Assembly: GCA_964431915.1 (NCBI GenBank)
Contig: CAYSLI010000001.1
Location: 111,240-175,239 of the forward strand
Direction of reading: 5' to 3'
Length of the DNA: 64,000 nucleotides
From: an uncultured Candidatus Saccharibacteria bacterium
Lineage (GTDB): Bacteria; Patescibacteriota; Minisyncoccia; Minisyncoccales; CAZKCU01
Every line of letters starts with the position of its first letter. The first letter of the stretch is position 1. Positions 29,850 to 63,121 of the stretch are shown in pieces. Both the position numbers and the translations under genes were made by a program. The notes beneath the pieces were generated by a model. That model saw nothing but the letters and a program-made list of their open reading frames with translations. It made no database searches and was not told the DNA's origin.

Positions 29850-29926
29850 TCTAAATAAAAGTTAGTGAATTAGATATTCACTCGACGCTTAATAATTTAA
29901 TATAGGAAGAAAAGAAGGTGATACTG

Positions 29927-30394
29927 ATGGCAAGAAAAGTATTAATTACAGGAATTATTCTTGTCCTGATAGCGTTAGTGACCCTAGGCATTGATATGTA
30001 TAATAGTTGCCCGAGAAAACCAATCTCTGTTTCTAAAACTCCCGAAGAAAAAACATTAGAAATGGAAAAGCTGGAAAAAGTAGGCTATTTGGTAGATTCG
30101 GAAGAATTTTTGGGCGGCTTTACCACGGGCGGTGTAGTAGAAGAAATTTTTGAAAACGCGCTTGTCATCCAAAGACTTAATGAGAAAGGAGAAGAAATAC
30201 TTGTAACGGTTCCGGTTGCTCAAGATGCAGAAATTACTTCCGGGAAGAAGGAAATTGCCTTTGAGGAAATAAAAAAAGGAGATGAAGTTTTTGTTTTGTT
30301 AAACCAGATGCAGGTAATTCTTTCGGGCGTTCCTTTAGAAGGAGTTTACGTTAATGTATCGGCACCAGAAGATTTGTTACTATCAGTGGAATGA
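29927..30394 (+). CDS. N-terminally anchored membrane protein, paralog family (155 aa)
   Basis: 'MARKVLITGIILVLIALVTLGIDM...' is highly similar to ORF 30726..31190. Confidence 0.6.
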   Translation: MARKVLITGIILVLIALVTLGIDMYNSCPRKPISVSKTPEEKTLEMEKLEKVGYLVDSEEFLGGFTTGGVVEEIFENALVIQRLNEKGEEILVTVPVAQDAEITSGKKEIAFEEIKKGDEVFVLLNQMQVILSGVPLEGVYVNVSAPEDLLLSVE

Positions 30395-30694: not shown

Positions 30695-30725
30695 CTTATT
30701 ACCCTAAAAGAAAGGAGTGATAATA

Positions 30726-31190
30726 ATGCGAATAGGAAAAATAGCAATTACAGGAATTATTCTTGCCCTGATAGCGTTAGTGACTCTAGGCATTGATATG
30801 GTTGATACATATAACAGTTATCCAAGAAAGCCAATGTCTGTTTCTAAAACTCCCGAAGAAAAAACACTAGAAATGGAAAAGCTACAGAAGGTAAGTTCTT
30901 TGACAGATTCAGAAGAATTTTTGGGTGGCTTCAGTACTGGCGGTGTAGTAGAAGAAGTTTTTGAAAACGCTCTTGTCATCCGAAAATTTAACGAAAAAGG
31001 AGAGGAAATATTTGTAACGGTTCCGGTTGCTCAAGATGCAGAAATTACTTCCGGGAAGAAGGAAATTGCCCTTAACAAAATAAAACCGGGAGATAAAGTA
31101 TTTATTTTGTTAAATCAAATGCAGGTAATTTTGTCAGGTTGTCCTCTGGAGGGAGTTTATATTGACGTATCGGTGCCAGAGCAGATTTAA
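30726..31190 (+). CDS. N-terminally anchored membrane protein, paralog family (154 aa)
   Basis: 'MRIGKIAITGIILALIALVTLGIDM...'. An AAAGGAG Shine-Dalgarno sequence lies 8 nt upstream of ATG 30726. Confidence 0.6.
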   Translation: MRIGKIAITGIILALIALVTLGIDMVDTYNSYPRKPMSVSKTPEEKTLEMEKLQKVSSLTDSEEFLGGFSTGGVVEEVFENALVIRKFNEKGEEIFVTVPVAQDAEITSGKKEIALNKIKPGDKVFILLNQMQVILSGCPLEGVYIDVSVPEQI

Positions 31191-31553: not shown

Positions 31554-31608
31554 CAAAAATTTTTAAAAATATTATTTAACTAAATACCATTTAAAATAGT
31601 TCTTTAGT

Positions 31609-31708
31609 TACCCGAGCTGCAGCGAAGGGTGGAATCGAAGAAGATTTCTTCTTCTCTACCTTCGCTTTCGTTACGCGAAAGTTTGGTGAAGAACGGATGT
31701 TCTTCGAG
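31609..31708 (-). repeat. GC-rich multi-hairpin element family C, about 100 nt, intergenic
   Basis: The reverse complement ends in ...CCCTTCGCTGCAGCTCGGGTA. It contains the hairpins gaagaag/cttcttc, tttcg/cgaaa and gaagaac/gttcttc. Confidence 0.7.
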
Positions 31709-32509: not shown

Positions 32510-35500
32510 ATGAATAAGAAAATAATTCTTATTTCTATAATTTTTGCTTTTCTGATAACTCTTATTCCCTTAAGAGTTGATTGGTCTTTTGATAAATCCT
32601 TAAAGGACGGTCTGGTTAGTACTAAACTGTCTTCGATTACTTATCGCCTAAATTACTGTAGCGCAGGTTGGTATAGCTATAACTGTTCTTGTTCTGGCAA
32701 CTATCGTCAAAGGAAATATTGTACCAGTTATGGCGGCTGTGGTTCCTGCTATAGGTATAAAAACTGTGGCTCCACTACTTATGGTTCCTGGAGCTATTAT
32801 TGTTCAGGGAGTAATTTGCGCCGAAAAAGAACTATTTACTACCGAGGTTGCTCGGGAAACTCTTGTTATTACTATACTGGCACCGGTAGTGAGCATGTAA
32901 GAAGCTGTGGCTCAACTACTTATGGTTCCTGGAGCTATTATTGTTCTGGGAGTAATTTGCGCCGAAAAAGAACTATTTACTACCGAGGTTGCTCAGGAAG
33001 TTCTTGTTATTACTATACTGGCACCGGTAGTGAGCATGTAAGAAGCTGTGGCTCAACTACTTATGGTTCCTGGAGCTATTATTGTTCTGGGAGTAATTTG
33101 CGCCGAAAAAGAACTATTTACTACCGAGGTTGCTCAGGAAGTTCTTGTTATTACTATACTGGCACCGGTAGTGAGCATGTAAGAAGCTGTGGCTCAAGAA
33201 CTTCCACTACTACTTATTACTGCTCCGGAAATACCCTCAAAAAAAAGGTGGTCTATTCCGGAGGCTGCTCTGGGACTTCATGTCGGAGCGACAGCACCTA
33301 CTATTATACTGTAAAAGACTGTGGCTCAAGGACCTGTACCTCTCGCACTTATTATTGTAGTGGAGACCGCCTCTGGTATAAATATACTTGCTCTGGAGGA
33401 TGTTCAGGAACTTCTTGCCGTGCGACCATTAACTACGCTTATTTGTCAAAAGACTGTGGCTCAAGAACTTCCACTACTACTTATTACTGCTCCGGAAATA
33501 CCCTCAAAAAAAAGGTGGTCTATTCCGGAGGCTGCTCTGGGACTTCATGTCGGAGCGACAGCACCTACTATTATACTGTAAAAGACTGCGGCTCAGATGA
33601 GTATGGAAGTTGGGGCAGTAATTATTGTAAATATGGCGATGTTTACCATAAGAGAATTATTGTTTACAGAGGGTGTTCAGGAACTGATTGTTACGAAAAT
33701 ACTGAAGGAGATGAACAAAGAGTTGAATATTGTAGTTTAGGTTGTAAAGAAGGAATGTGTATTACGGGATTATGTATTTCTCATGGTGATTGTGGTAGAT
33801 GCTATTATTGTCAGAGGTGGCCGCTTTGCACTGGCGTCTCTGGGGGTGTACCATGGATAGGTCCGTGCTGTCGTCCCACAGAGGGAGTTAATCAGAATGT
33901 TTGTGGGCAAAACCCTCGCGAGAAAGGTTCTTATTGTTCTCAGCAAGAAGGGTATTATCAAGGTTGCGTTGGTGTCTACAACGCCTGTCATGGAGGAGTT
34001 ACTTGTGGTTATGGAAATGTGTGTAACGTTTTGGAGCACATTTCCGGTTGTGGCAAGATTAATTGCACTTCTGATAATTACTGTGTTGGAAACAAGATTT
34101 ATGCAAAGACTACCTGCTCTGGAGGTTGCTCAGGAGGTGATTGCTTGGAAGATCGCACTTATGAATATTATTTAACTGACTGCGGTCCAAGAACTTACAT
34201 AGATAGTTATTACTGCTCAGGAAATAAGGTTTATAAGAAGAGAGTCTATTCCGGAGGCTGTTCAGGAGGTGAATGCACAGAGGATAGCATTTATACCTAT
34301 TATCAAGAAGACTGTGGGACGAGTGATTATAAATACCGTATTTCAGGAGGCTGGCAGCAAAGGGCGTGGTGTAGTAGAGGTTGCTCAAATGGTTCTTGTT
34401 ATGAAAACTGTGGTTCTTGGTCAAACTATCTACAGGACTGCGGGCACACTTGCCTAAGTCATGGCACAGCTTCTGTTGGCTGGCCTGATTGTTCCTGTAG
34501 CAGACGGAGTCCAGCTTCAGGTTATGAAATAATTGGAAGGTGGAATACCTATGATTGCGGCAATAACTGCACAGGTTACAGAAAAACTGGCTGTTCTTGC
34601 ACAAGTTGGGCTGACCGCTCCTGCGGAGGAGGCAGTTGTTCTGCTTACCAAAGACAGCAAACTCGCACCTGTACCCCTTCTGGCTGTGATAAAGAATCTC
34701 GATGTGTATCTGACTCTGCCTGTGGTTGTTCTTGTACAGGTTGGGTTAACCGCTCCTGTGGTGGAGGCAGTTGTTCTGCCACCCAAAGACAGCAAACTCG
34801 AACCTGTACTCCTTCAGGCTGTGATTCTGAATCTCAGTGCGTGGCTGACAGCGCATGCGTTTCCTCTCCCATTCTTAATTTAACAGCTGATCCTTCTTCA
34901 ATTACCCAAGGACAATTCTCAACTCTTCAGTGGTCTTCTATTAATACAACCAGTTGTACCTGGACAGCCGGTTTATCAGGGGGAGCTGCAACTTCTGGCA
35001 ATAGAGCGGTTAACCCTTCTACTACCACCACTTACTCAATGAGTTGTACTGGTCTTGGTGGAAATGCTTCAGGTAGTGCTATAGTTAATGTTTCTCCATT
35101 AATCAATCAGTCTCCTTCAGCAACTAATCTCAAGGTAGTCCAGCCAGATTATTGTCTTTCCGGGCCAACAGGTTTTTTCTCCTGGACCTTTACTGACCCT
35201 GACCCTGGAGATACCCAATCTGCCTACCGAGTTCAGGTAGATAACAATAGTAATTTCTCTTCACCTGAAGATGATTCTGGAAAAGTAACCTCAAGCTCTA
35301 ATTCCTATGCCACTATCTTGGGTAAATTGAAATATAACAATACATATTACTGGAGATTAAAGGTCTGGGATTCAAAAGGCCTTGATTCTATTTGGATTTC
35401 AGGTCCCAGCTTTACCACTCCAACACATGCCTATCCTGAAATTGACTTTAGCTGGTCTCCATTTAAACCAAGCGTTGACGAAGAGGTTTTATTCGTTGAC

Positions 35501-35728
35501 CAATCAACTGTCTATGGAGGAACTACAAAAGAAAGCTGGTCTTGGACTTTCCAAGATGGCAGCCCGGACAGTTCTGCAGAGCAAAACCCAATAGCCAAAT
35601 TCTCTTCCACCGGCGAAAAAGACATTACTCTCAGAGTTACTGACTCTGATGGTTTCTCCTGTTCTCGCGCTAAAACCTTAAACAGCCAGCTTCCTCTTCC
35701 TATCTGGAAAGAGATTGCGCCATTTTAG
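32510..35728 (+). CDS. Giant cysteine-rich modular surface protein (Cys-module repeats, 2 TSP1-like repeats, Ig-like, FN3-like and PKD-like C-terminal domains)
   Basis: 1072-aa ORF with an N-terminal TM/signal. It has about 10 modules of 44-47 aa built around 'YYCSG..L..K...Y.GGCSG.SC'. The C-terminus 'IDFSWSP...VLFVDQS...WTFQDGS...ITLRVTDSDG' is PKD-like. Confidence 0.8.
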   Translation: MNKKIILISIIFAFLITLIPLRVDWSFDKSLKDGLVSTKLSSITYRLNYCSAGWYSYNCSCSGNYRQRKYCTSYGGCGSCYRYKNCGSTTYGSWSYYCSGSNLRRKRTIYYRGCSGNSCYYYTGTGSEHVRSCGSTTYGSWSYYCSGSNLRRKRTIYYRGCSGSSCYYYTGTGSEHVRSCGSTTYGSWSYYCSGSNLRRKRTIYYRGCSGSSCYYYTGTGSEHVRSCGSRTSTTTYYCSGNTLKKKVVYSGGCSGTSCRSDSTYYYTVKDCGSRTCTSRTYYCSGDRLWYKYTCSGGCSGTSCRATINYAYLSKDCGSRTSTTTYYCSGNTLKKKVVYSGGCSGTSCRSDSTYYYTVKDCGSDEYGSWGSNYCKYGDVYHKRIIVYRGCSGTDCYENTEGDEQRVEYCSLGCKEGMCITGLCISHGDCGRCYYCQRWPLCTGVSGGVPWIGPCCRPTEGVNQNVCGQNPREKGSYCSQQEGYYQGCVGVYNACHGGVTCGYGNVCNVLEHISGCGKINCTSDNYCVGNKIYAKTTCSGGCSGGDCLEDRTYEYYLTDCGPRTYIDSYYCSGNKVYKKRVYSGGCSGGECTEDSIYTYYQEDCGTSDYKYRISGGWQQRAWCSRGCSNGSCYENCGSWSNYLQDCGHTCLSHGTASVGWPDCSCSRRSPASGYEIIGRWNTYDCGNNCTGYRKTGCSCTSWADRSCGGGSCSAYQRQQTRTCTPSGCDKESRCVSDSACGCSCTGWVNRSCGGGSCSATQRQQTRTCTPSGCDSESQCVADSACVSSPILNLTADPSSITQGQFSTLQWSSINTTSCTWTAGLSGGAATSGNRAVNPSTTTTYSMSCTGLGGNASGSAIVNVSPLINQSPSATNLKVVQPDYCLSGPTGFFSWTFTDPDPGDTQSAYRVQVDNNSNFSSPEDDSGKVTSSSNSYATILGKLKYNNTYYWRLKVWDSKGLDSIWISGPSFTTPTHAYPEIDFSWSPFKPSVDEEVLFVDQSTVYGGTTKESWSWTFQDGSPDSSAEQNPIAKFSSTGEKDITLRVTDSDGFSCSRAKTLNSQLPLPIWKEIAPF
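32764..33186 (+). repeat. 3 x 141-bp near-identical tandem repeat
   Basis: ctgtggctc(c/a)actacttatgg occurs at 32764, 32905 and 33046. Each unit is 47 aa. Confidence 0.9.
33187..33588 (+). repeat. 267-bp period repeat, 1.5 copies, with a 135-bp identical block
   Basis: 33187-33321 is identical to 33454-33588. Each block contains an A8 tract (33239-33246 and 33506-33513). Confidence 0.9.
34592..34861 (+). repeat. 2 x 135-bp repeat encoding TSP1-like Cys modules
   Basis: 'CSCT(S/G)W..RSCGGGSCSA.QRQQTRTCTPSGCD.ES.CV.DSAC' occurs twice. Confidence 0.8.
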
Positions 35729-37486: not shown

Positions 37487-37536
37487 AGGTCGCTGAAAGC
37501 TTCGCCTTCATCTCTCATCCTCGCTTTGCTCGGGTA
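37487..37536 (+). repeat. Family C element, degenerate copy
   Basis: ...cttcgccttc...cctcgctttgctcgggta shares the GCTCGGGTA 3' signature. Confidence 0.5.
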
Positions 37537-50608: not shown

Positions 50609-51181
50609 ATGAATCTAAATAAAAAAATAATTTTTACTTCGGAAATCCCTGGGATAATAGGGTTAATTTTTATCTTTCTAATAATTTATCCATTGTTTAA
50701 TAATATTAAAAAAAATTCTGAGACTTTTATTTCTCAAAAAAGAGAATTAGCTTTACTAGAGATTGAAATCGAAAACCTGGAAAAATTTGAAAAGATTTAC
50801 CAGACCCATTACCAAAATTTAGAAAAAATTGATAAATTATTTATTAATCCGGAAATTCCTACAGACATTATTGAATTTGTTGGTTTTCTGAGAAAAATTG
50901 CTAAGGATTCTCAGATTTCGATTGATATTTCCTCCTCGACTCCAAAAAAACAAATTGTCGCTGATCCTTGGTCTTCCATAACTTTTCAGGTGGCTTTAAA
51001 GGGGAGGTTATCTAATTTTGAGAAATTTCTTGAAAAATTAGAAACCAGCCCTTATTTAATAGAAATTCTTAATTTAAATATTAGGAGATTAACCGAAAAA
51101 GGAGTTAAGCCAGAAAAATTTGAAGAATTCTCTCTGGCAGATACTGATATCTCTTTATCGATAAAAGTCTTCACTAAATGA
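50609..51181 (+). CDS. PilO-like protein
   Basis: 190 aa with a TM and coiled coil, positioned after pilN. Confidence 0.5.
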   Translation: MNLNKKIIFTSEIPGIIGLIFIFLIIYPLFNNIKKNSETFISQKRELALLEIEIENLEKFEKIYQTHYQNLEKIDKLFINPEIPTDIIEFVGFLRKIAKDSQISIDISSSTPKKQIVADPWSSITFQVALKGRLSNFEKFLEKLETSPYLIEILNLNIRRLTEKGVKPEKFEEFSLADTDISLSIKVFTK

Positions 51182-51474
51182 AAATTCCCAAAATAAAATT
51201 TAATAAAATTAAAATCTTCTTTAAAAAACTTCCAAGAATTTTAGGGGAGAATACTTTTTTGACTTTCCTGTTTCTTTTATTTTTGTCCCTAATTTTGGGT
51301 GGTATTGTTTTCTATAAATACAGTATTTTGGCAGAGAAAGCAGAACCCCAAATCATTAAAAAACCTCTTCAATTTGAAGAAAAAACCTACCAAAAAATAT
51401 TAAATGAATGGGAGGCCAGGGGAAGAAGATTTGAAGAAACTGAATTAAAAGAATACCCCGATCTCTTTAGGTAA
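51178..51474 (+). CDS. Small single-TM protein, pilus-operon associated
   Basis: 98-aa ORF whose start overlaps the stop of the PilO-like gene. Confidence 0.45.
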   Translation: MKIPKIKFNKIKIFFKKLPRILGENTFLTFLFLLFLSLILGGIVFYKYSILAEKAEPQIIKKPLQFEEKTYQKILNEWEARGRRFEETELKEYPDLFR

Positions 51475-51578
51475 GGCGAAGAGAACTCCGTCCTCTTCTT
51501 CACCCTTCGCCTGCGGCTCGGGTAGGCGAAGATAACTCCGTCCTCTTCTTTAACTTCGCTTCCTACAGAAGCTCGTTG
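51475..51578 (+). repeat. Family C element, two tandem units
   Basis: GGCGAAGAGAACTCCGTCCTCTTCTTCACCCTTCGCCTGCGGCTCGGGTA is followed by the variant GGCGAAGATAACTCCGTCCTCTTCTTTAACTTCGC.... Confidence 0.8.
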
Positions 51579-53348: not shown

Positions 53349-53377
53349 TTGACAAGCTATTGTGGATAAGCTAATAT
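53349..53377 (+). promoter_or_regulatory. Promoter with a DnaA-box 9-mer in its spacer
   Basis: TTGACA-17 nt-TAATAT. TGTGGATAA lies at 53361-53369. Confidence 0.5.
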
Positions 53378-53405
53378 GTTAAAACCCCCTTTCGGGGGTT
53401 TTAAG

Positions 53406-54077
53406 ATGAGTACGAACTTAAATTATCAGGATATTTCCCCTGATGAGGGAAAGTCTCGTGTTTCCATCCCTCTATCGGGGCTTACTATTCTGATTATTAT
53501 AGTAATTGTTGGAATTTTAGTCGGGATTTTACTAATTTTTGAGCCCGCAACAAAAAATGCTGAGGCTAATTTAGTTGAGGGCGAAGAGGATAAATCCTTT
53601 TCTTCCCCTTTCGCTGTTGCTCGGGAGGGCGAAGAAAATAGATTTTCTTCTTCCCCTTTCGCTGTTGCTCGGGAGGTTGAGATTAAAGAAATATCCCAGG
53701 TCTTAGAGAAAGGATTGCCTCTTTTACAAGGAAATAGTCTTTTAGCAATTTCTACTCCTTCTAATCCAGAACCTCAAACCGTCAAAAAAATAAGGGTAGT
53801 TATTACTGCTTATTCTAGTACGATAGATCAAACCGACTTAGATCCTTTTGTAACTGCTGCCGGTACCTGGGTTAGAGAAGGAATTGTTGCTAACAATAAG
53901 TATCCCTTTGGAACAGAAATTAGGATTCCAGAAATCTATGGTGAGAAAGTTTTTGTGGTTGAAGATAGAATGAGTTGGAAAAAAGGGAAATATCATATTG
54001 ATATTTGGTTTCCTTCTTATTGGGAAGCCCTAAATTTTGGAACAAAGAGAACCTACATTGAGGTTTTGGAAAGTTAA
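53406..54077 (+). CDS. Membrane-anchored 3D-domain (MltA/YuiC-like) cell-wall protein
   Basis: ATG at 53406, a TM segment, and C-terminal 'ITAYSSTIDQTDLDPFVTAAGT...GTEIRIP...VVEDRM...HIDIWF'. Confidence 0.75.
   Translation: MSTNLNYQDISPDEGKSRVSIPLSGLTILIIIVIVGILVGILLIFEPATKNAEANLVEGEEDKSFSSPFAVAREGEENRFSSSPFAVAREVEIKEISQVLEKGLPLLQGNSLLAISTPSNPEPQTVKKIRVVITAYSSTIDQTDLDPFVTAAGTWVREGIVANNKYPFGTEIRIPEIYGEKVFVVEDRMSWKKGKYHIDIWFPSYWEALNFGTKRTYIEVLES
53580..53675 (+). repeat. Family C element, 2 x 48-nt in-frame tandem units inside a CDS
   Basis: GGCGAAGAGGATAAATCCTTTTCTTCCCCTTTCGCTGTTGCTCGGGAG occurs twice and encodes 'GEEDKSFSSPFAVARE / GEENRFSSSPFAVARE'. Confidence 0.85.
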
Positions 54078-54124: not shown

Positions 54125-54154
54125 GTGTGCCGCGGGTGGGACTTACATCGATAA

Positions 54155-54916
54155 TTAAACGAAGAGAGTCTTGGATGTTGCTCGTTGATTTAAATGCCAA
54201 CCGATTTTTGAGGGATAATTTTGTTTTATATAACCACGCCTTTTAATTGATTTCCATTTCTCAAAAACTTGCCGTTTACGCGAGAGATATAAAGTTGGAT
54301 TATTCCCATACATAAATTCAGCTATTTTTTCACAATCATCAATATAAAAGTAAATCGTATATAAAGGAATTTTTCCTTTCTTATGTTCTTCCTTATGAAT
54401 TGTTTTTAAAGAAATTTTCAAATTTTTGCAAAGTTTCTGATTAAAATCAGTAATAAAAGGTAAACTAGAACTTACAAATCCAGCTTTAATTTGGGGGACT
54501 TTATTGACATTGTAAATATAAATAGAGCCATCACCGTCAAAAAATCCCCGAACAAAATCAGGAAAATATTTATCCGGAACTTTTATTGGATACAAATTAT
54601 AAGTTTTTCTGGGTTGAATTCCTAAATTCAATAAATCTTTAGTTATTATATGGTTACGAATTTGTAATTGATATCCGTTATTATCCGCTTTTCGAGATTT
54701 TTTACTAATCTTATGTTCAGATTCTAGTGTTTCTTTAAGCAAATATAAGTGCTTCAAATCAACAGAAGTTATATTTAATGTAAAAGGATGGCTTTTTCTA
54801 TCTTTACTTATTGCAATACAACCATCGGCTACAATATAACCTAAAACATAACTCATCTCGGAGTTCCATTTTTTAAAGAAGTTTTGGTTAATGTGCCTTG
54901 TATATACATTTCCCAT
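54155..54916 (-). CDS. LAGLIDADG-family homing endonuclease (two-motif, free-standing)
   Basis: 253 aa with 'LGYIVADGCI' and 'FVRGFFDGDGSI'. It starts 14 nt after the tRNA-Leu 3' end. Confidence 0.85.
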   Translation of the reverse strand: MGNVYTRHINQNFFKKWNSEMSYVLGYIVADGCIAISKDRKSHPFTLNITSVDLKHLYLLKETLESEHKISKKSRKADNNGYQLQIRNHIITKDLLNLGIQPRKTYNLYPIKVPDKYFPDFVRGFFDGDGSIYIYNVNKVPQIKAGFVSSSLPFITDFNQKLCKNLKISLKTIHKEEHKKGKIPLYTIYFYIDDCEKIAEFMYGNNPTLYLSRKRQVFEKWKSIKRRGYIKQNYPSKIGWHLNQRATSKTLFV

Positions 54917-54929
54917 ATTTTAAAAAATG

Positions 54930-55016: not shown

Positions 55017-55017
55017 G

Positions 55018-55090
55018 AGGCCACGGTCGGATTTGCACCGACGTATACCTCTTTTGCAGAGAGGCGCCTTAGCTACTTGGCTACGTGGCC
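55018..55090 (-). tRNA. tRNA-Cys (GCA)
   Basis: Acceptor GGCCACG/CGTGGCC, discriminator T, anticodon loop CTGCAAA. It is separated from tRNA-Leu by 1 nt. Confidence 0.85.
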
Positions 55091-55123
55091 ATAACTCGCA
55101 TTTTAACAATTTTTAAACCTTTT

Positions 55124-55489: not shown

Positions 55490-55530
55490 ACTACGATTTA
55501 TCGGAGCACATAACAACTTATGTGCTCGAT

Positions 55531-57434: not shown

Positions 57435-57452
57435 TGAAATAAATTGAAAATT

Positions 57453-57503
57453 GGCGAAGAGAACTTTGTTCTCTTCTTTAACCTTCGCACTTCGTGCTCG
57501 GTT
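57453..57503 (+). repeat. Family C element, intergenic
   Basis: GGCGAAGAGAACTTTGTTCTCTTCTTTAACCTTCGCACTTCGTGCTCGGTT. Confidence 0.75.
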
Positions 57504-57539
57504 CATTGAACATAATTTTCTTTTCTTATACTCTTTTGT

Positions 57540-58259
57540 TTAATCATTTTGTTTCTTTGCCACTACCAGAACACCATGCATTTTCGACATTTTTTCCAGA
57601 AAACCTGTCTCAATCAATCTTGTTTTCTTTTTTGCTATTTTCAAAGACAAACCATAGAAAATATCTGAAACTCTTATAGAAAACTCTGGTGCTCTGCTTA
57701 AAAAGAAAACCGTTAGCTTATCAAAAAAATGGCTCTTTGTCCTTAGGCCATGTTCGCTAATTGCAATAATTTTCAATTTAGCCCGGGACAACTTCTCTAT
57801 CAGCTCTTTAGCTCCGTATCTCCTCATATGGCCACAAGCTTTGTCAAAATCATTATACAAACTTTTCTGAAGAGGCACTGAAAAAATAAACTTCCCTTTG
57901 TTTTTCAAAATTCTTCCTACCTCATTTAAGACTCGTTGGTCATTCGCAATATGTTCTAAAACATCAAAGCCGCAGACTAAATCAAAATACTGATCAGGAA
58001 AAGATGTGCCTTCTAGAGAAGATTTCATAGCATTTGCGCCCAATTCTTTTAAGCGATTTGTCGCCTCTCCGTTAGTATCCAGAAAGACAGAAGCAAAAAA
58101 TGGAAGCTTGGGACGCGCCCCAGACCCGAATTCGAGCAACCTATCTTTTGGTTTAATAAATTTTCTCAAAATCTGCCATTCGGGATATTCTTTATAATCC
58201 CTGACCCTAACAGCTCGCCATAACTTGTCGTATAACAATTCATTATTAAGTATTTCCAT
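57540..58259 (-). CDS. Class I SAM-dependent methyltransferase
   Basis: 239 aa with 'LLEFGSGARP' and 'FDLVCGFDVLEHI'. Confidence 0.75.
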   Translation of the reverse strand: MEILNNELLYDKLWRAVRVRDYKEYPEWQILRKFIKPKDRLLEFGSGARPKLPFFASVFLDTNGEATNRLKELGANAMKSSLEGTSFPDQYFDLVCGFDVLEHIANDQRVLNEVGRILKNKGKFIFSVPLQKSLYNDFDKACGHMRRYGAKELIEKLSRAKLKIIAISEHGLRTKSHFFDKLTVFFLSRAPEFSIRVSDIFYGLSLKIAKKKTRLIETGFLEKMSKMHGVLVVAKKQND

Positions 58260-58268
58260 ATTTTTTAG

Positions 58269-58356
58269 CGGTGGGGGTGAGATTCGAACTCACGGTGGCC
58301 TTGTTGACCACAATGGTTTTCGAAACCATCCCTTTAAACCACTCAGGCACCCCACC
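58269..58356 (-). tRNA. tRNA-Ser (CGA)
   Basis: Acceptor GGTGGGG/CCCCACC, discriminator G, anticodon loop TTCGAAA, long variable arm. Confidence 0.85.
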
Positions 58357-58440
58357 ACTTCTCTACACGATGAAGCGTTTCGCACTGTTTTGATTTTTAA
58401 ATCATCTTTAAGATACCATTTTTTTATTTAAAAATCAATA

Positions 58441-58463
58441 AAAACCTCGAATTCGAGGTTTTT
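58441..58463. terminator. Palindromic hairpin terminator
   Basis: aaaacctcgaattcgaggtttt. Confidence 0.6.
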
Positions 58464-58539
58464 GGTGGGCACTACAGGATTTGAACCTGTGACCTTCGCG
58501 ATGTAAGCGCGACGCGCTAAACCACTGCGCCAAGTGCCC
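58463..58539 (-). tRNA. tRNA-Val (TAC), CCA encoded
   Basis: Acceptor GGGCACT/AGTGCCC, then A and CCA, anticodon loop CTTACAT. Confidence 0.85.
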
Positions 58540-58572
58540 CCGTTAAATTTGTTTTATAAATCTATTAAATTG

Positions 58573-58655
58573 TGGGCGAGGAGGGACTCGAACCCTCACG
58601 CCAAAATGGCCTACGCACCTCAAGCGTAGATGTCTGCCTGTTCCATCACTCGCCC
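58573..58655 (-). tRNA. tRNA-Leu (GAG)
   Basis: Acceptor GGGCGAG/CTCGCCC, anticodon loop TTGAGGT, long variable arm. Confidence 0.8.
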
Positions 58656-59116
58656 ATTTTTTCTTTAATTTCTTTAGGTTTTTCTGTTTTTTCTTTCTTT
58701 TCTTCGATTGGTTTTTCTTTAACTACGGACTCGGTAAATTCTTTTGTTTTCAATCTCGCCTTTCTTCCTTTAACCTTTCTTAAATAATAAAGTTTTGCTC
58801 TCCTTACTCTCCCTCTTTTTATAATTTCTATCTTTTCTATGGTAGGGGAGTGGAAAGGGAATGTTTTTTCTACTCCAATTCCTGAAATTACTTTTCTTAC
58901 TGCAATTGTAGATCCAATTCCTTTACCATGTTTTTTAGCAATCACCAGTCCCTCGAAGGTCTGTATTCTTTCTTTATATTCTTTTGTTACAGATGATTTA
59001 CTTTTCTTTGAAACTTCTTTGATTTTTTGATAAATCCGAACAGTATCACCCGGTCGAATATCGGGTAAGTTAGTCTTTAATTGGGATTTAATAAAAGTCT
59101 CAAGTTTTGTAGCCAT
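58646..59116 (-). CDS. rplS: 50S ribosomal protein L19 with a K/E-rich C-terminal extension
   Basis: 'IRPGDTVRIYQKIKE...ERIQTFEGLVIAKKHGKGIGSTIAVRK'. The last 10 nt overlap the tRNA-Leu 5' end. Confidence 0.9.
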   Translation of the reverse strand: MATKLETFIKSQLKTNLPDIRPGDTVRIYQKIKEVSKKSKSSVTKEYKERIQTFEGLVIAKKHGKGIGSTIAVRKVISGIGVEKTFPFHSPTIEKIEIIKRGRVRRAKLYYLRKVKGRKARLKTKEFTESVVKEKPIEEKKEKTEKPKEIKEKMGE

Positions 59117-59188
59117 AATTAATTTTCAATCAATGTTGAATCTTTAAACTTTCAAACATTTAAGAATTTAAAATTCATTTAAAATTTA

Positions 59189-59911
59189 TCATTCAGCATT
59201 TAAAATTCCTAATACACGTTTTAGTTCTTTTGGTAAACCTGACTTGAATTCTTTAACTTGGTTGCTTGGTAATTGAATTTTAAGATAGGTGGCGTGTAAA
59301 AATTGTCTTTTTAATTCTTTAGGGCAGGGCTGGTTTTTAAATCCATATAGTTTGTCACCGGCTATGGGGTGTCCCAAATAAGCAAAATGGGTTCTAATCT
59401 GATGCTTCCTGCCCGAAAGAGGCTTAACCTCAATTAAATCATAATCTTTAAATCTTTGCAACACTTTATATTTGGTAACAGCAATTCTTTTTCCTTGGGA
59501 GCCTGGTTCATGAGGCAAGTATACTTTTTGTTTCCTTCTGTCTCCTGGTGAGCGGCCAATAAGGGTTTCAATTACCCGAGCCGCAGGCGAAGAAAACTCT
59601 GTTTTCTTCTTTACCTCCGCTTTCATAAATGAAAGCTTGGTGGGTGAAGAAGAGGATTTATCCTCTTCGCCTACACCTTTATTATTTTTCAGATTGCCGA
59701 TTGCCAGGGCTAAATATTTCTTTCTTACTTTTCTGTTTTTAAATTGTTCTTGCAAGAAATCTAAGGCCCTATCGTTTTTCGCTATCAATAAAACTCCCGA
59801 AGTGTCTTTATCTAATCTGTGAACCCTTTTTTTAAAGTCGTCAGAATTTACCCCTGCTGGTTTATCAATTACTAAAACATTTTCATCTTCATAAAGAATA
59901 TTAAACTTCAT
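59189..59911 (-). CDS. RluA/RluD-family pseudouridine synthase carrying a 33-aa element-derived insertion
   Basis: 'HRLDKDTSGVLLIAKN' and 'LSGRKHQIRTHFAYLGHPIAGDKLYG'. The insertion lies between 'IGNLKNNKG' and 'VIETLIGR'. Confidence 0.85.
   Translation of the reverse strand: MKFNILYEDENVLVIDKPAGVNSDDFKKRVHRLDKDTSGVLLIAKNDRALDFLQEQFKNRKVRKKYLALAIGNLKNNKGVGEEDKSSSSPTKLSFMKAEVKKKTEFSSPAARVIETLIGRSPGDRRKQKVYLPHEPGSQGKRIAVTKYKVLQRFKDYDLIEVKPLSGRKHQIRTHFAYLGHPIAGDKLYGFKNQPCPKELKRQFLHATYLKIQLPSNQVKEFKSGLPKELKRVLGILNAE
59573..59671 (-). repeat. Family C element, 99 nt, in-frame inside the rluD-like gene
   Basis: The sense strand reads GGCGAAGAGGATAAATCCTCTTCTTCACCC...GCTTTCATTTATGAAAGC...GAAGAAAACAGAGTTTTCTTCGCCTGCGGCTCGGGTA. 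Confidence 0.85.
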
Positions 59912-59912
59912 G

Positions 59913-59986
59913 TGGGCGCTGAGGGATTTGAACCCACGACCTTCTCGATGTCACCGAGACGCGCTAAACCACTGCGCCAAGCGCCC
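59913..59986 (-). tRNA. tRNA-Val (GAC)
   Basis: Acceptor GGGCGCT/AGCGCCC, anticodon loop GTGACAT. Confidence 0.8.
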
Positions 59987-59992
59987 TTGGGG

Positions 59993-60064
59993 TGCGCGTG
60001 GCAGGGATTGAGCCTGCGACCTCGGCTTTATAAGAGCCGCGCTCTACCACTGAGCTACACGCGC
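59993..60064 (-). tRNA. tRNA-Ile (TAT)
   Basis: Acceptor GCGCGTG/CACGCGC, anticodon stem CGGCT/AGCCG, loop CTTATAA. The T-loop CTCAATC is atypical. Confidence 0.7.
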
Positions 60065-60066
60065 AT

Positions 60067-61962
60067 TTATACTTGTCTAATTTTTACTTTTACTGGCTTT
60101 TCAGTTTTTGGCAAGGATTTCTTGTAGGCTGTTTTCCTTTCTCCTTTAATTAAACTCTCAAATTCCTCTTTTTCAATGGTTTCTTTTTTAATTAAAGTTT
60201 TGGCAATCTTTTCAAGCAACTTTTTGTTTTTAGTTAAAATCTTTTTAGATTTCTGTTCAGCATCTTTAATAAACTTTGCTACTTCTTTATCAATCTGAGC
60301 AGCAACTTTTTCAGAGTAATTTCTTTGTTCTGAGATTTCTTTTCCCAAAAAGACAAGTTCTTCCTTTTCACCAAAAGAAACAGGTCCTAAAGCAGACATA
60401 CCGTATTCTTTAACTAATTTTCTGGCTAAATCAGAAGCCCTTTTTAAATCATTAGCTGCTCCGGTGGTAATTTCTTTAAATTTCAATTTTTCAGCGCAGT
60501 ATCCACCGAGTAGAGTTGCCATTTCAGCTAAAAATTCTTTTTTGGTCTTAATTTTTCTTTCCTCAACTGGCATTTTTAAAGTGTAGCCAGCAGCTGGCCC
60601 CCGGGCAACAATTGAAATTTTCCTAACCGACTCAGCTTCTGGCAGAGAAGCAGAAACCAAAGCGTGGCCTGCTTCATGAAAAGCAGCAATTTCTTTTTCT
60701 TTTTTGGATAAGATATGACTTTTTCTTTCAGGACCCAATAAAACTTTTTCAATTGATTCTAAAAACTCTTCTTGATAAATTTGATTTTTATTTCTTCTGG
60801 CAGCTAAGATCGCTGCTTCATTAACTACATTAGCTACATCAGCTCCGGAAAATCCTGGGGTACGCTCTGCAATTTCTCTTAAATTAACATTTAAGGCTAA
60901 GGGTTTCCCTCGACAGTGAATTTTTAAAATTTCTTCTCGGTCATTAATATCAGGCATATCTAGGACTACTTTCCTATCAAATCGGCCAGGTCTCAACAGG
61001 GCAGGGTCGAGGACGTCCGGGCGATTTGTAGCCGCGCAAACTATTAATTTTGTGTCTCTTTCAAAACCATCCATTTCCACTAAAATTTGATTTAGCGTTT
61101 GTTCTCTTTCGTCATGTCCTCCGCCAATTCCAGCTCCCCGGTGTCTGCCAATAGCGTCAAGCTCATCAATGAAAACAATTGAAGGAGCCGCTTTTTTAGC
61201 AGTAGCAAATAAATCTCTCACTCGGGAACTCCCAACCCCAACAAACATTTCGACGAATTCAGAACCGGCGATTGAAAAGAAAGGTACGCTAGCTTCTCCT
61301 GCTACGGCTCTTGCTAATAAAGTTTTACCAGTTCCAGCTGCCCCCATTAATAGAACTCCTCTTGGTATCCGTGCTCCCATTGCTAAATATTTTTTGGGAT
61401 TTTTTAAGAAATCAACGATTTCTTTTAATTCTTCTTTTGCTTCTTTTAGACCGGCCACATCTTTGAAAGTAATTTTTTCTTTTGGATGACCTTCTGCTCC
61501 AAAAAGCCGGGCTCTGGCTTTGGTAAAACTAAATGCCTGAGTAGCTCCAGCTTTTGCCTGGCGGAGGATAAAAAAGAAAAAGAAACCAAAAAGTAAAAGA
61601 GGCAGCAAACCAAGGAGCAAAAGAGGTCCCAGCCAAGAGAAAACCCCTTGCTTTTCTTCTTTAATGTCGGTCTCTACTTTGTTTATTTTTTCTTCATTTA
61701 CTCCATAGGCTATCAGGGTTTCTCGAAGACCGGCTTCTGGCTCTTTTCTTGATTTTGCTTTGGTTTCATCATGATATTCAATAGAAAGTCCTGAGCCGAA
61801 GGCAGTAATTTTTTTAACTTTCTCCTGATTAACTTCTTCAACTAATTGAGTTAAAGAAATTTCTTTTTCTTTTTCAAGAGGTGAAATAAATAAGGTAAAG
61901 ATACCCGAGATAATCAGGAGAATTAAAATTACGAAAATAAAATTTTTAATTAAATTCTTCAT
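60067..61962 (-). CDS. ftsH: ATP-dependent zinc metalloprotease FtsH
   Basis: 631 aa with '[11 protein letters not shown]', 'IVFIDELDA', the SRH region, and 'HEAGHAL'. Confidence 0.95.
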
Positions 61963-62011
61963 TTAGTGAGGTTTAATTTATTAAACCGAAGCTGGAGATG
62001 AAGCTTTAGCT

Positions 62012-63121
62012 TCATGGACTTTCCACTAATTTTAAACTCATTCGGTGTTCTTTTGGGTCAATTGATAAAATCTGAAAATCATATTTTTTATCAATCTCTA
62101 AAATTTCTTCCATTTTAGATTTTGTTCCAAATTCGGAAATATGGACCAGTCCTTGGATTTTTGGGGTAATCTGAATAAAGGCACCAAAAGGATTAAATTT
62201 AGTTACCTTAGCCGAAACCTTATCGCCTTTTTTATATTTTTTCTCAATATTTTTCCAGGGATCTCTCTTTAGAGCTTTTAAAGATAAAAAGACTTTATTA
62301 TCTGAAATTTCAATAATCTTTGCTCGAATTTTTTGCCCAACCTTGACAATTTCAGAAGGGTCCTGAACTATTGCCCAATCAAATTCGGAGATATGGATTA
62401 AACCCTCTAGCCCTTTGCCAAAAACCATGAAAGCTCCAAAGTCAACCAGCCCGCTAATTTCTCCCTCAACTGTATCTCCTACTTTATAGCCCTTTAAAGA
62501 CTCTTTTATTTTCTCAATTTCTTTTGCTTTTTCAGATAAAATAAGAACCCGTTTCCCTTCACCCGGCAGAATCTTGTTTCTTGCTCTACTCGAAATAAAT
62601 TTTCTCTCTTTTTGGGAAAGATTAAGGATTTTTACTTCCAATTCTTTTCCTATAAATTTTTGAAGCCCTCTTAAAATTTTTAATGAATCTCCTCCTTCGA
62701 CCCGAGGATAGTGTTCTGGAGATAATTGTGATACTGGCAAAAAAGCAGGAGTCCCTAAAATCTCTGTCAGTAATCCTCCCTTATTTGCTCCCGAAATTTT
62801 AACTTTCACGGTCTCATTTTTTTCTTTTTTTTCTTTGAGGGCTTCCCAGGTGAGTTCTTGTCCAGCTTGTTTTAAAGATAATTCAATATAGCCTTCTTCA
62901 TTTTCGAGATCTACTATTTTTACAAAAATACTATTACCAATTTTTAAATCTTTTAAACTATTCTTAGCTTCTTGGAACTCTTTTCCATAAATTATTCCTG
63001 TTCCCAGGGGCCCTAAATCTAAAAAAACAGACGAGCGTCCTTTACCAATAATTTGGCCCTCAAGAATTTCACCAACTTTCGGTGGCTTCAATAAATTATT
63101 TTTTTCAAAAATATCCTTCAT
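62012..63121 (-). CDS. rpsA: 30S ribosomal protein S1 (four S1 domains)
   Basis: Repeated S1 motifs ('GEILEGQIIG', 'VEGEISGLVDFGAFMVF', 'VSAKVTKFNPFGAFIQI'). ATG at 63121. Confidence 0.85.
   Translation of the reverse strand: MKDIFEKNNLLKPPKVGEILEGQIIGKGRSSVFLDLGPLGTGIIYGKEFQEAKNSLKDLKIGNSIFVKIVDLENEEGYIELSLKQAGQELTWEALKEKKEKNETVKVKISGANKGGLLTEILGTPAFLPVSQLSPEHYPRVEGGDSLKILRGLQKFIGKELEVKILNLSQKERKFISSRARNKILPGEGKRVLILSEKAKEIEKIKESLKGYKVGDTVEGEISGLVDFGAFMVFGKGLEGLIHISEFDWAIVQDPSEIVKVGQKIRAKIIEISDNKVFLSLKALKRDPWKNIEKKYKKGDKVSAKVTKFNPFGAFIQITPKIQGLVHISEFGTKSKMEEILEIDKKYDFQILSIDPKEHRMSLKLVESP

Follow-up and report, generated by a model that had tools for sequence, protein, structure and literature searches.

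An in-frame composite hairpin repeat in the rluA gene of a Nealsonbacteria/Paceibacteria-like CPR bacterium

An intact gene for an RluA-family pseudouridine synthase, located in the 64-kb window (the whole stretch of DNA analysed, 64,000 nucleotides), carries 99 nucleotides that close relatives lack. We consider it probable (about 0.82) that these 99 nt were acquired recently, as a composite copy belonging to a dispersed, non-autonomous family of hairpin-forming repeats specific to Nealsonbacteria/Paceibacteria-like CPR bacteria. The insertion would have occurred between the conserved ATT GAA ACC (I-E-T) and the Gly/Val codon before it, at a beta-hairpin turn of the synthase.

Results

The insert lies in frame in an intact pseudouridine synthase gene

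The original prediction had placed a repeat copy, in frame, in an RluA/RluD-type gene. Coordinates and content were checked, and positions 59573-59671 indeed comprise 99 nt, exactly 33 in-frame codons. The region contains the following features:

59189..59911, minus strand: RluA-family pseudouridine synthase gene, 240 aa, intact, with the catalytic HRLD motif (PF00849, E=7e-27)
59573..59671, minus strand: composite (doublet) element within rluA, 99 nt or 33 codons, without counterpart in L041, L042 and L002, whose flanks agree in all other respects
59643..59671, minus strand: head of the outer (sense) copy (nhmmer, model positions 1-33, E=2e-9; hairpin census)
59586..59640, plus strand: complete inner copy, antisense (nhmmer, model positions 1-42, E=4e-8)
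59573..59585, minus strand: tail of the outer copy, TGCGGCTCGGGTA, with the conserved CTCGG end and the peptide AARV
59565..59572, minus strand: target-side flank ATTGAAAC (I-E-T codons), already there in empty alleles

By its PF00849 domain, fold and catalytic Asp, the host protein is an RluA-family pseudouridine synthase. Its PDB matches were RluC, RluD and RluA (E 1e-25 to 1e-18), and H31, R32, L33 and D34 were invariant across the orthologue alignment. The AF2 model (pLDDT 84) has an RluD/RluC-type fold and was matched by Foldseek to 11wx_A (E=9e-20, TM 0.75). The 33 inserted codons encode GEEDKSSSSPTKLSFMKAEVKKKTEFSSPAARV, residues 81-113, bordered by ...GNLKNNKGV on one side and IETLIGR on the other. 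As had been stated for canonical family members, solved homologues are short at this point (~6 residues vs ~40 in the host protein). In the model, pLDDT fell below 50 solely at residues 77-109, which are flanked by strands 63-71 and 112-121; the rest was confident. The model shows the insert as a loop of low confidence where a beta-hairpin turns, and this predicted surface or loop location is the one expected of an insertion resembling the Rickettsia palindromic elements (RPE). Integrity of the ORF suggests that the 33 residues are translated and, together with the conserved catalytic residues, that the enzyme probably retains its activity despite the insert. An assembly artefact was dismissed as the source of the insert, because the exact 240-aa protein is present on four contigs that fall into different length classes.

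On the minus strand the element reads GGCGAAG...CTCGGGTA, with a folding energy of -50.2 kcal/mol (z = -6.5). The outer head comprises GGCGAAG, the hairpin GAAGAGGA/TAAA/TCCTCTTC and TTCACC and encodes GEEDKSSSSP. The inner copy, composed of GGCGAAGAAAAC-TCT-GTTTTCTTC TTTACCTCCGC, the tail hairpin TTTCAT-AA-ATGAAA and GCTTGG, gives KLSFMKAEVKKKTEFSSP when read on the gene strand. The outer tail and that of the copy at 51506-51524 have the same sequence, and the nested antisense-in-sense layout recurs in L043, L005 and L003. GTA plus the flank at 59565..59572 forms GTAATTGA, in agreement with the right-flank consensus of the repeat family. The insert had also been proposed to share its reading frame with the copies in ORF 53376..54077. 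This holds for the first 10 codons, which are in frame with both of those copies (GEEDKSFSSP and GEENRFSSSP), and fails for the second half, where an antisense copy is nested in the sense copy.

Close relatives carry precisely empty alleles

Presence/absence polymorphism had been suggested as a check, and the RluA orthologues proved to be polymorphic. The syntenic relative L041 (97.6% nucleotide identity over 12 kb) lacks exactly the 99 nt, with identical flanks, and its rluA is ~99% identical outside two insertion sites. In L042, another close relative, precisely the 33-aa segment is missing, again between identical flanks, and BLASTP against the closest relative gave a single clean 33-residue gap. 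These data support a recent acquisition of the rluA insertion. A homologous 33-aa segment in orthologues free of the family would have spoken against a repeat. The opposite was found: close relatives are empty, and the extra residues of filled orthologues are recognisable copies of the same repeat.

Among 120 orthologues, one and the same codon position is either empty or holds a short form of ~17 aa or a long form of ~33-38 aa, and filled alleles are scattered over at least 10 clades, in which they have near-identical empty sisters. As a refinement of the original prediction, this codon appears to have been filled or emptied many times independently. The flanks of the rluA in the window agree with those of its own empty relatives, not with those of other filled alleles. 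In pairs of filled alleles, the inserts reach the same level of identity as the host enzymes, a comparison that does not separate 'ancient' from 'recurrent'. A separate 48-nt copy is located at codon ~6 of rluA in L041, L002, L043 and L016. The junction of the 99-nt insert is ambiguous, with GTA at both sides. The empty alleles of the closest relatives have GAA where the filled allele has GTA...GTA, so that a simple insertion requires a Val-type ancestor or one additional substitution.

The insert belongs to a dispersed family with a covarying hairpin

In the window, the pattern TTCGC..CTCGGGTA occurs four times (0 expected). Besides the rluA element, the following copies were located:

31608..31706, minus strand: intergenic long-form (doublet) copy with sense and nested antisense units
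37488..37536, plus strand: degenerate copy 3' of the RNase Y gene, ending in ...CTCGGGTAATTGAG
51475..51576, plus strand: two tandem intergenic short-form copies (51475-51521 and 51525-51576)
53580..53675, plus strand: two tandem in-frame short-form copies (53580-53624 and 53628-53672; GEEDKSFSSPFAVARE / GEENRFSSSPFAVARE) in ORF 53376..54077
57453..57501, plus strand: short-form copy in antisense to the DUF4446 gene, at whose 5' end it lies
61965..62020, minus strand: related but degenerate element whose head reads CATGAAGC-TAAA-GCTTCATC, lying between the genes for S1 and FtsH; L041 lacks it

The copies at 51475..51576 sit between the stop of ORF 51178..51474 and a promoter (TTGACT-N17-TAGAAT) followed by a tRNA (promoter/tRNA at 51619); L041 has one unit only at this locus. 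Orthologues of ORF 53376..54077 contain one copy in L042 and L043 and two in L041. The label '3D-domain' given earlier to this ORF was not borne out by Pfam, which had no hit at E<=1, C-terminal domain included. The copy at 57453..57501 probably creates a spurious 23-codon N-terminal extension of the DUF4446 protein, whose orthologues in L042 and L043 have 121-122 aa.

The family unit measures ~45-50 nt. Its conserved 5' block is followed by a covarying hairpin of 7-11 bp, in which the 5' arm is purine and the 3' arm pyrimidine; next come the core TTCACCCTTCGC and a tail hairpin of variable make-up, and CTCGG forms the end. The order is G[GT]C[GA]AAG, hairpin, TTCACC(C)TTCGC, short or hairpin tail, CTCGG(GTA). 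Tail hairpins frequently have TTCG-type loops, and the family termini TAGGCGAAG and TACCCGAGC agree at 5/9 positions. Hairpin statistics were obtained from a direct hairpin census and a gapless 45-nt alignment, as MAFFT on mixed-length copies misplaces loops. A head stem of 7-11 bp was present in 43/43 copies, built from 32 distinct hairpin arms. Paired cells amounted to 97.2% (87.6% in shuffles) and cells changed on both sides to 78 (23 in shuffles); neither value was reached in any of 500 shuffles. Compensatory changes were found at 5/8 hairpin pairs, with a covariation of 0.369 vs 0.179. In the proposed comparison of constraint on peptide and hairpin, the data favour the nucleotide hairpin, which is conserved through compensatory changes, while the peptide is not. 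A search of 51000-62200 with the covariance models of Rfam 15 returned tRNAs and sub-threshold chance hits only and left the elements unmatched, and no publication on the repeat family was found in the literature. The data support a previously undescribed family, specific to Nealsonbacteria/Paceibacteria-like CPR bacteria. One complete genome with the family is CP179888.1 (Ca. Nealsonbacteria ER9H13parc1, 639 kb).

We give next to no credence to the idea that the 33 residues are an old lineage-specific loop under protein-level selection, similar to other loci by low-complexity coincidence. The E/K/S-rich low-complexity composition and the many orthologues with an insert at the same codon would fit such a loop, but the segment is missing from a 97.6% identical genome, its nucleotide sequence is common to intergenic copies, filled alleles are polyphyletic, and residue changes track base-pairing (e.g. 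D/S to N/F, EED..SSS to DEA..ASS). The empty alleles of L041 and other relatives and the hairpin covariation refute this reading.

The strong covariation could also mean that the elements are kept for their usefulness, either as exapted cis-acting DNA or RNA structures with a hairpin conserved for function in situ, or as selectable surface-loop variation. Candidate roles are mRNA stabilisers, attenuators and terminators, or, as has been proposed for REPs, binding sites for the nucleoid or topoisomerase. The frequent TTCG-type loops, the position of intergenic copies just 3' of stop codons and directly 5' of promoters (e.g. 51475-51576), and the host-enzyme level of insert identity among filled rluA alleles point in the same direction. 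However, covariation is equally expected if hairpin-competent masters alone can transpose, many sites differ in presence or absence between 97.6-99.9% identical genomes, the host genes are unrelated, and copy number varies between one and two tandem units. We regard maintenance by function as unlikely.

Copies reside in unrelated housekeeping genes

In a metagenome survey, 104/120 loci were genuine, with 294 copies in total. A copy was counted as genic when it lay well inside an ORF of at least 150 aa with a confident Pfam domain. By this definition 123/294 copies (42%) are genic, in bona fide housekeeping genes that are mutually unrelated (MurB, GyrA, FtsZ, RecA, RpoB, IF-2, Mur enzymes, RluA and others). 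The two usual stop-free frames are used by 96 of these 123 copies (78%). The lengths of genic copies are divisible by 3 (48 and 99 nt), and intergenic copies have 47-52 nt. On viral contigs, 35 degenerate matches to the core pattern were seen, none of them backed by the element HMM, and these were therefore taken as chance matches. The RPE-like in-frame insertion claimed at the outset is supported by the intact rluA ORF and the dispersed in-frame copies in unrelated genes, and an RPE-analogous process in a CPR-like genome is supported by the clean indel against close relatives and by the genic share of the copies. The survey supports that this behaviour is general and not peculiar to rluA.

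In the rluA copy, the palindrome of purine and pyrimidine arms leaves one sense frame and one antisense frame free of stops, and the encoded peptide is hydrophilic and rich in E, K, D and S. In-frame copies in permissive loops may therefore be translated as disordered surface insertions and survive, and gene-breaking copies would be purged.

The mature protein might lack the insert, through either excision from the mRNA or ribosomal bypassing. The latter is exemplified by T4 gene 60 and by the 'byp' elements in the mitochondria of yeasts; in Magnusiomyces mitochondria, where the genomes are AT-rich, it affects GC-rich palindromic inserts. This precedent and the very stable hairpin of the insert speak for such a process. 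A skipped insert would need no frame constraint, yet genic copies keep to multiples of 3 and mostly to the two stop-free frames, and neither take-off/landing codon pairs nor intron features were seen. Removal or bypassing is very improbable.

Copies are gained or lost without target duplication and share a flank signature

Contigs L086 and L124, which come from time-series metagenomes (Ga0210xxx) and are 99.9% identical, carry 45-nt indels that are reciprocal, occupy identical targets and leave no target duplication; at both sites, A and B, the junction ambiguity is at most 1 nt. Counted from the CTCGG end, the right flank has R at +7 in 98% and A at +8 in 82-84% of sites (144-179 sites), and the insertion-site consensus is GTANTTRA. 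Position -1 is A or G in 159/177 copies. Identity of the 3-nt flanks was 24% vs 7.5% expected, a significant excess, yet orthologous sites are not independent. The fixed-distance R-A signature indicates an enzyme-like target choice. Integration of the repeat would be site-selective for R-A at +7/+8 and, wherever the junction is unambiguous, free of target duplication.

No transposase was detected by Pfam in 40 ORFs of the 64-kb window, nor among nine ORFs bracketed by copies (Mur ligases, RF, L6, S1, PrsW, GtrA and others). A tblastn search over 543 kb with an IS200 TnpA probe, a weak test, gave no match, and about 1.3 Mb of sampled sequence yielded neither a RAYT nor a REPtron. Integron attC-like, IS91-like and Xer/dif-like mechanisms were dismissed for lack of matching motifs; a GTTC target, considered for IS91, is present solely at the L086/L124 sites.

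The nested L086/L124 events could represent ectopic gene conversion between repeat copies as an alternative to transposition. More generally, most spread and loss might go back to homologous recombination or gene conversion, acting among the repeat copies as well as among the alleles of different strains, with no dedicated transposase. The negative transposase searches would then be expected, the L086/L124 indels have identical flanks of at least 15 nt from the host repeat, rluA flanks are strongly conserved among orthologues, and substitutions are clustered beside both rluA insertion sites. Gene conversion, however, cannot explain how copies first entered unique sequence in dozens of genes that are unrelated to each other. 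The filled allele of the window is flanked as its own clade and unlike other filled alleles, and the R-A signature is found at 98% of sites. Recombination as the main route is distinctly unlikely. For the preferred reading, a non-autonomous hairpin repeat, mobilisation would occur in trans by a separate enzyme, with single-strand HUH/Y1 (IS200/IS605-RAYT-like) chemistry as the most plausible route.

Discussion

CPR/Patescibacteria are among the bacteria with the smallest, most streamlined genomes, and their conserved genes are known to contain insertions that have found no explanation. If the 99 nt are a recently acquired repeat copy, at least one CPR lineage has an active selfish repeat family with about 0.4 copies per kb, more than 40% of which are predicted translated parts of essential proteins (IF-2, RecA, RpoB, FtsZ, GyrA, Mur enzymes, RluA). 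Dozens of apparently independent fill and empty events at one codon would constitute a natural experiment on the tolerance of loop insertions, and copies may serve as presence/absence markers for strain resolution. For MAG annotation and orthologue alignment, copies give spurious N-terminal extensions and inflated protein-length variation. The family also makes testable what moves REP-like elements where no RAYT is evident. A bolder and rather doubtful extension would place the repeats in a new class of hairpin elements that select their sites, moved either by an enzyme unrelated to known RAYT/IS200 transposases or by an activity of host replication or repair. A GTANTTRA-like target, common in conserved coding sequence, would cause the same codons of essential genes to be hit repeatedly in independent CPR lineages, and the palindrome would be adapted for harmless translation. 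The family would then continually supply CPR proteins with disordered loops.

RPEs were reportedly described by Ogata et al. in 2000 and 2002. RPE-1 to RPE-10 of Rickettsia are palindromic repeats of ~100-150 nt, often in frame in housekeeping genes; the RPE peptide is predicted at the protein surface, and truB, a pseudouridine synthase gene, is among the hosts (PMC10969869, PMC3733652). The present family likewise consists of dispersed palindromes lying in frame in unrelated housekeeping genes that stay intact, in a reduced host genome. It differs in its host phylum (CPR/Patescibacteria, Ca. Nealsonbacteria/Paceibacteria, vs Alphaproteobacteria), in its shorter, bipartite hairpin-core-hairpin unit of 45-50 nt with doublets formed by nesting, in ongoing activity that leaves 97.6-99.9% identical genomes polymorphic, and in its ends, G[GT]C[GA]AAG and CTCGG(GTA), with no CGTC terminal tag. 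Having neither this tag nor a Rickettsia host, it is not an RPE proper, and the likeness would be one of analogous behaviour that does not imply homology.

IS-derived MITEs are small, non-autonomous and dispersed and occasionally give in-frame fusions (PMC10969869), all of which applies here. In contrast to MITEs defined by terminal inverted repeats and duplications of fixed length, the family lacks clear terminal inverted repeats (5/9) and a consistent target duplication, and the sequences searched revealed no parent IS. A further comparison is with the ends of the IS200/IS605 family, whose member IS608 provides the mechanism cited in PMC3116915, and with their miniature derivatives. Like these, the repeats have hairpin ends, are gained and lost precisely with no target duplication (L086/L124) and lie beside a short flank signature, although no tnpA was found and the R-A signature lies 6 nt from the end instead of abutting it. 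In general, IS200/IS605 ends are structure-defined hairpins, gain and loss are precise and without target duplication, and insertion occurs beside a short signature.

REP and REPIN elements owe their mobility to RAYT (Y1/HUH) transposases (Bertels & Rainey 2011, PMC3116915; Di Nocera et al. 2013, PMC3733652), and intragenic REP copies are known, pseudouridine synthase genes included (PMC3116915, PMC3733652). The CPR family deviates in its conserved 12-nt core and second hairpin after the first, in the lack of a RAYT/REPtron in the sequence sampled, and in its 42% genic copies, whereas REPs are by definition mostly extragenic. It shares with them a short imperfect palindrome that is conserved in structure, conserved flanking nucleotides, clusters and tandem arrays, and indels without target duplication. 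For the REP tag GTAG the picture is mixed: GTAG precedes GCGAAG in the rluA copy and in filled L043, L044 and L003, but in the flank table, judged by eye, only a minority of about a quarter of copies has it. As in REPINs, the inverted doublets at 59573-59671 and 31608-31706 fold as a long hairpin or an alternative 'clover'. The original comparison with RPEs can thus be refined: in architecture, the family is nearer to REP/REPIN than to RPE.

An in-frame insert in an intact pseudouridine synthase gene

The ORF at 59189..59911 (- strand) is intact and encodes 240 aa with a PF00849 pseudouridine synthase domain (Pfam, E=7e-27). A PDB search gave RluC, RluD and RluA as its top solved-structure relatives. 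On the - strand, 59573..59671 reads GGCGAAGAGGATAAATCCTCTTCTTCACCCACCAAGCTTTCATTTATGAAAGCGGAGGTAAAGAAGAAAACAGAGTTTTCTTCGCCTGCGGCTCGGGTA; these 33 codons encode GEEDKSSSSPTKLSFMKAEVKKKTEFSSPAARV, flanked by ...GNLKNNKGV and IETLIGR, which confirms the original observation of an exact in-frame 33-codon segment. GC content is 46%, against 35% in the remainder of rluA. Only sense frame 1, which is in use, and antisense frame 2 are free of stops. The element folds at -50.2 kcal/mol (z=-6.5), far stabler than shuffles.

Canonical synthases had been said to carry only a few residues at this site. In PDB alignments, positions 72 and 113 of the RluA from the window are matched to residues 111 and 118 of the 11wx_A chain, so that ~34 residues are surplus, in agreement with this claim. 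An AlphaFold2 model built with a 70-sequence alignment (mean pLDDT 84, pTM 0.79) structurally resembles RluD, RluC and RluA (11wx_A, E=9e-20, TMq 0.75), and all family-invariant columns are retained, H31-R32-L33-D34 among them. Values of pLDDT <50 are confined to residues 77-109, which sit at a hairpin turn between strands 63-71 and 112-121, as expected from the proposed loop location.

Copies and anatomy of the repeat family

Further copies in the window were located with BLAST, by a search for repeats and with an nhmmer profile run iteratively.

Copies in the window, and parts of the 99-nt rluA copy
31608-31706, -: doublet copy, intergenic
~37488-37536, +: degenerate copy
51475-51521 and 51525-51576, +: tandem copies, intergenic
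53580-53624 and 53628-53672, +: tandem copies in frame in ORF 53376..54077
57453-57501, +: short-form copy, 5' end of DUF4446 gene
61965-62020, -: degenerate copy
59671-59643: outer sense head of the 99-nt doublet
59586-59640, +: complete antisense unit with hairpin tail, inside the doublet
59585-59573: outer tail of the 99-nt doublet

The anatomy of the unit was derived from 43, later at least 81, copies. It begins with G[GT]C[GA]AAG and a head hairpin of 7-11 bp with a purine-rich 5' arm, a pyrimidine-rich 3' arm and loops such as TAAA, TTCG or GAA, followed by TTCACC(C)TTCGC. The tail is either short (TGCGG) or a separate hairpin with compensated stems (GCTTCC-TTCG-GGAAGC, GCAC-TTCG-GTGC, GTTCCC-ATAAAT-GGGAAC, GCCCG-TCAAAG-CGGGC), and the unit ends with CTCGG, in most copies followed by GTA. 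The rluA copy is a doublet in which an antisense unit lies within a sense unit, one CTTCGCC being common to both. Cleanly nested forms of this architecture are present in the rluA insert of locus L043 and at L005 5172-5260 and L003 4171-4250.

In the 51525-51618 region, the second intergenic copy directly adjoins a canonical sigma-70-type promoter (TTGACT-N17-TAGAAT) of the tRNA at 51619, and TTGAC-like boxes adjoin several further copies (L003 5961, L016 13451). The DUF4446 ORF (57069-57506, -), listed at 145 aa, starts within or upstream of the antisense copy (MNRARSAKVKEENKVLFA...). Since orthologues without a copy have 121-122 aa, its true start is probably Met25, a case of an N terminus over-extended by a repeat. 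ORF 53376-54077 (+) had been labelled a 3D-domain gene; no Pfam match supported this label, even at E<=1 on the C-terminal domain. Its tandem copies number two in the window and in L041, and one in L042 and L043.

Conservation of nucleotide structure

Head stems of filled orthologues, GAAGAGGA/TCCTCTTC (window), GATGAAGC/GCTTCATC (L044) and GATGAAAC/GTTTCATC (L003), are altered on both sides at three positions. The inner unit of the window doublet and its L043 counterpart differ in the sequence of both hairpins, and both hairpins are preserved. Covariation was quantified with 81 distinct gap-free 45-nt copies, for which no structure-guided alignment was needed. Of the cells, 97.2% were paired (shuffles, 87.6±0.6%) and 78 showed changes on both sides (shuffles, 23±3.7); the covariation score was 0.369 (shuffles, 0.179; slid registers, <=0.193). 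None of 500 shuffles reached the observed values. Of 8 pairs, 5 were compensatory. Because pairing is kept, coding copies undergo linked, non-conservative amino-acid replacements (D..S to N..F; EED-K-SSS to DEA-K-ASS), contrary to what purifying selection on the peptide would give. With regard to the suggested comparison of peptide and hairpin, the alignments indicate that it is the nucleotide structure, rather than the peptide, that is conserved.

Presence and absence among relatives

Among the best 120 rluA homologues, three states occur at the exact insert position: empty alleles reading KG-x-IETL, inserts of ~17 aa (VGDEAKASSSPFAAARV, VGEEDKSSSSPFAAARV, VVKEDKSSSSPFANARV and others) and inserts of 33-38 aa (homologues P0001, P0004, P0005, P0015 and P0036). 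The closest homologue is encoded on L041, a relative's contig syntenic with the window (97.6% identity across 12,022 aligned bases), and this alignment is interrupted precisely at the 99-nt element. The empty allele reads ...AAAGGTG AA ATTGAAACCCTTATTGGCCGC, the filled one ...AAAGGTG TA[GGCGAAG...CTCGGG]TA ATTGAAACCCTTATTGGCCGC. Another close relative, L042, shares 25 + 21 identical flanking bases with the window around the insert. The anticipated presence/absence polymorphism was thereby found.

The 12-kb comparison with L041 contains three further element-related indels: a short-form copy of 48 nt, in frame at rluA codon ~6, that L041 has and the window lacks and that explains why P0002 has 223 aa; one tandem unit against two at 51.5 kb; and a 56-nt element at 62.0 kb. 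Both rluA insertions are present in P0004 from L043 (256 aa).

The 48-nt copy marks a second hot spot in rluA, past codon ~5 (MQPKI[IVKEDKSSSPSFAAAR]LYEDEN, L041 10016-10063). It is also filled in L002 9956-10000, L043 148-192 and L016 3224-3268, and empty in the window (~59896). The 12 nt to the left of the copy show strong divergence from the allele in the window.

In a neighbour-joining tree without the insert columns, which is indicative only for a 200-aa protein, filled alleles fall in at least 10 separate clades, with very close filled/empty sister pairs (P0001/P0002, P0004/P0018, P0037/P0089). When the identity of inserts was set against that of their hosts, ancient and recurrent insertion could not be told apart. 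The window flanks (ACC CTT ATT GGC CGC) are of the type of its own empty relatives, other filled alleles reading ACT TTA ..., and its outer head differs from the 53580 copy of the same genome at two positions only, orthologues' inserts being less similar. Flanks and head thus favour independent, site-directed insertions over one ancient insertion or the import of a filled allele.

Mobility and target choice

Two near-identical metagenome contigs, L086 and L124, show collinearity, with 11 mismatches over 11.4 kb (99.9% identical). They are distinguished by two reciprocal 45-nt indels that have identical targets and lie 2.7 kb from each other.

Reciprocal 45-nt indels
L086: ~3546 / 6241-6285
L124: 8175-8219 / ~5476

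Each is an antisense unit at TCGAAGAACATTCGTTC^TTCTCCACCC within another copy, and lacks a target duplication, as the junction ambiguity is <=1 nt. Both contigs have a third such nested site in the filled state. For nested copies of this kind, ectopic gene conversion is a serious alternative.

Flanks were analyzed at 144-179 distinct, non-nested sites. On the right, 98% have R at +7 and 82-84% have A at +8, with the consensus GTA-NTT-RA; [AGT]YTRA at +4..+8 was found in 32% against a background of 2% (P ~1e-50). In rluA, the bases of this motif are the conserved ATT GAA (I-E) codons, already there in empty alleles, and thus represent a target signature. An exact match to the consensus is seen in the Val-type empty allele GTAATTGA, as in L005, whose rluA site is empty; this possibly explains repeated insertion at the same codon. 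The rluA junction is ambiguous, with GTA on both sides of the element; since GAA stands there in the nearest empty alleles, the filled allele requires either an ancestor of the Val type or one additional substitution. Three-nt flank identity was 24% against 7.5% expected, an excess confounded by orthologous sites.

No transposase or recombinase gene was found within the 64-kb window or among the ORFs adjoining bracketing copies, and an IS200 probe, a weak test, detected no transposase in 543 kb. Because the element has hairpin ends and a target motif close by, and is gained and lost with no duplication of the target, its mobility would most resemble single-strand HUH/Y1 transposition (IS200/IS605, REPIN-RAYT).

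Spread through genes and genomes

The host lineage is Ca. Nealsonbacteria/Paceibacteria, with copies in L002, L003, L004, L005, L007, L011 and L016 among 39 species-representative loci examined. IF-2 of L005 (12860-14548, -) contains three in-frame copies, two in antisense frame directly ahead of the G domain with no intervening start codon and one sense copy mid-protein; HSP20 of L005 (306-995, +) contains one.

A metagenome scan with a family-specific pattern gave minimum figures among the matches listed: at least 294 copies (~0.4 per kb) in 104 genuine loci of 120 (mean GC 37%). When copies were counted that lie 15 or more codons from either end of an ORF of 150 aa or longer, 123 of these 294 listed copies (42%) were genic, 63 in the sense GEEDKSSSSPFAAAR and 33 in the antisense TRAAAKGEEEDLSSSP frame. 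The 71 ORFs scanned as hosts are genuine genes. The other 16 loci were rejected as high-GC chance matches without support. Viral contigs gave chance matches only.

Host ORFs (71 scanned, among the matches listed)
4 each: MurB
3 each: PilB-type ATPase, Pol I 5'-3' exonuclease, S1
2 each: GyrA, PGK, PBP transpeptidase, Pol III delta', GrpE, NusA, GPI, Mur ligases, FtsZ
1 each: RecA, RpoB, CTP synthase, GluRS, FtsW, enolase, others

Other repeats and inserts

An 802-nt segment (54143-54945), missing in L041, carries a LAGLIDADG endonuclease ORF (54155..54916, PF14528/PF00961), adjoins the 3' end of tRNA-Leu(taa) (54929-55016) and opens with a near-duplicate of the tRNA 3' end. At the IF-2 stop codon, a 33-nt insertion (55501-55533), not in L041, is another small palindrome, GAGCACATAA-GTTG-TTATGTGCTC, with the 7-nt direct repeat TAAATCG on both sides. 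L002, the complete Nealsonbacteria genome, has at 13319-13383 a palindromic insert of another kind (CTACAACCCGCCCACCGCGTCCTCCCACCTTCGGCGGGCCCCGGCG, GC-rich, 43-46 nt) that is absent from the window and L042 and may represent a second repeat family. Two perfect-palindrome families at gene ends, AAATTACAGAGAACCGTTCTCTGTAATTT (21327-21357, 24286-24319, 29378-29407) and GTCTGTCGGTATC..GATACCGACAGAC (24060-24090, 51698-51728), are probably terminators. A promoter-like motif (TTGACAAATTCT.TGAAAT.GTGTAAT; 29398-31303) occurs four times upstream of paralogous small ORFs without Pfam match (29918..30394 and 30717..31190), within 300-nt direct repeats at 29991/30802. The 1072-aa ORF 32510..35728 contains 141-nt tandem repeats and further direct repeats (32761-33203, 33187-34321).

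Comparison with known systems

No Rfam model matches the elements. The literature searched, of limited coverage and including a 2025 cross-phylum REP survey (PMC12306157), yielded no such repeats in CPR/Patescibacteria, and in this sense the family appears undescribed. In-frame copies in unrelated housekeeping genes, and the genic share of the listed copies, support the original reading of the element as similar to Rickettsia palindromic elements (RPEs). This reading is refined in four points: the copy is a doublet, of REPIN-like architecture, its codon is a recurrent hot spot, and rluA has a second one. The case presents an active, abundant selfish element that colonises genes of a streamlined CPR genome, and supplies natural data of unusual clarity on how insertions are tolerated and targets chosen.

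The likeness to RPEs lies in palindromic repeats, here presumably translated, within housekeeping genes of a reduced genome (PMC10969869); in contrast to RPEs proper, the family lacks the CGTC tag and occurs in another taxon. Unlike MITEs, it has neither TIRs nor a consistent target duplication. It differs from classical REPs in being 42% genic (at least 294 copies listed), in its inconsistent GTAG tag and in that no RAYT was found. In architecture it is nearer to REP/REPIN elements (PMC3116915) than to RPEs, and near also to the intragenic GTAG/CGTC REPs of Di Nocera et al., for which pseudouridine synthase genes are recurrent hosts (PMC3733652).
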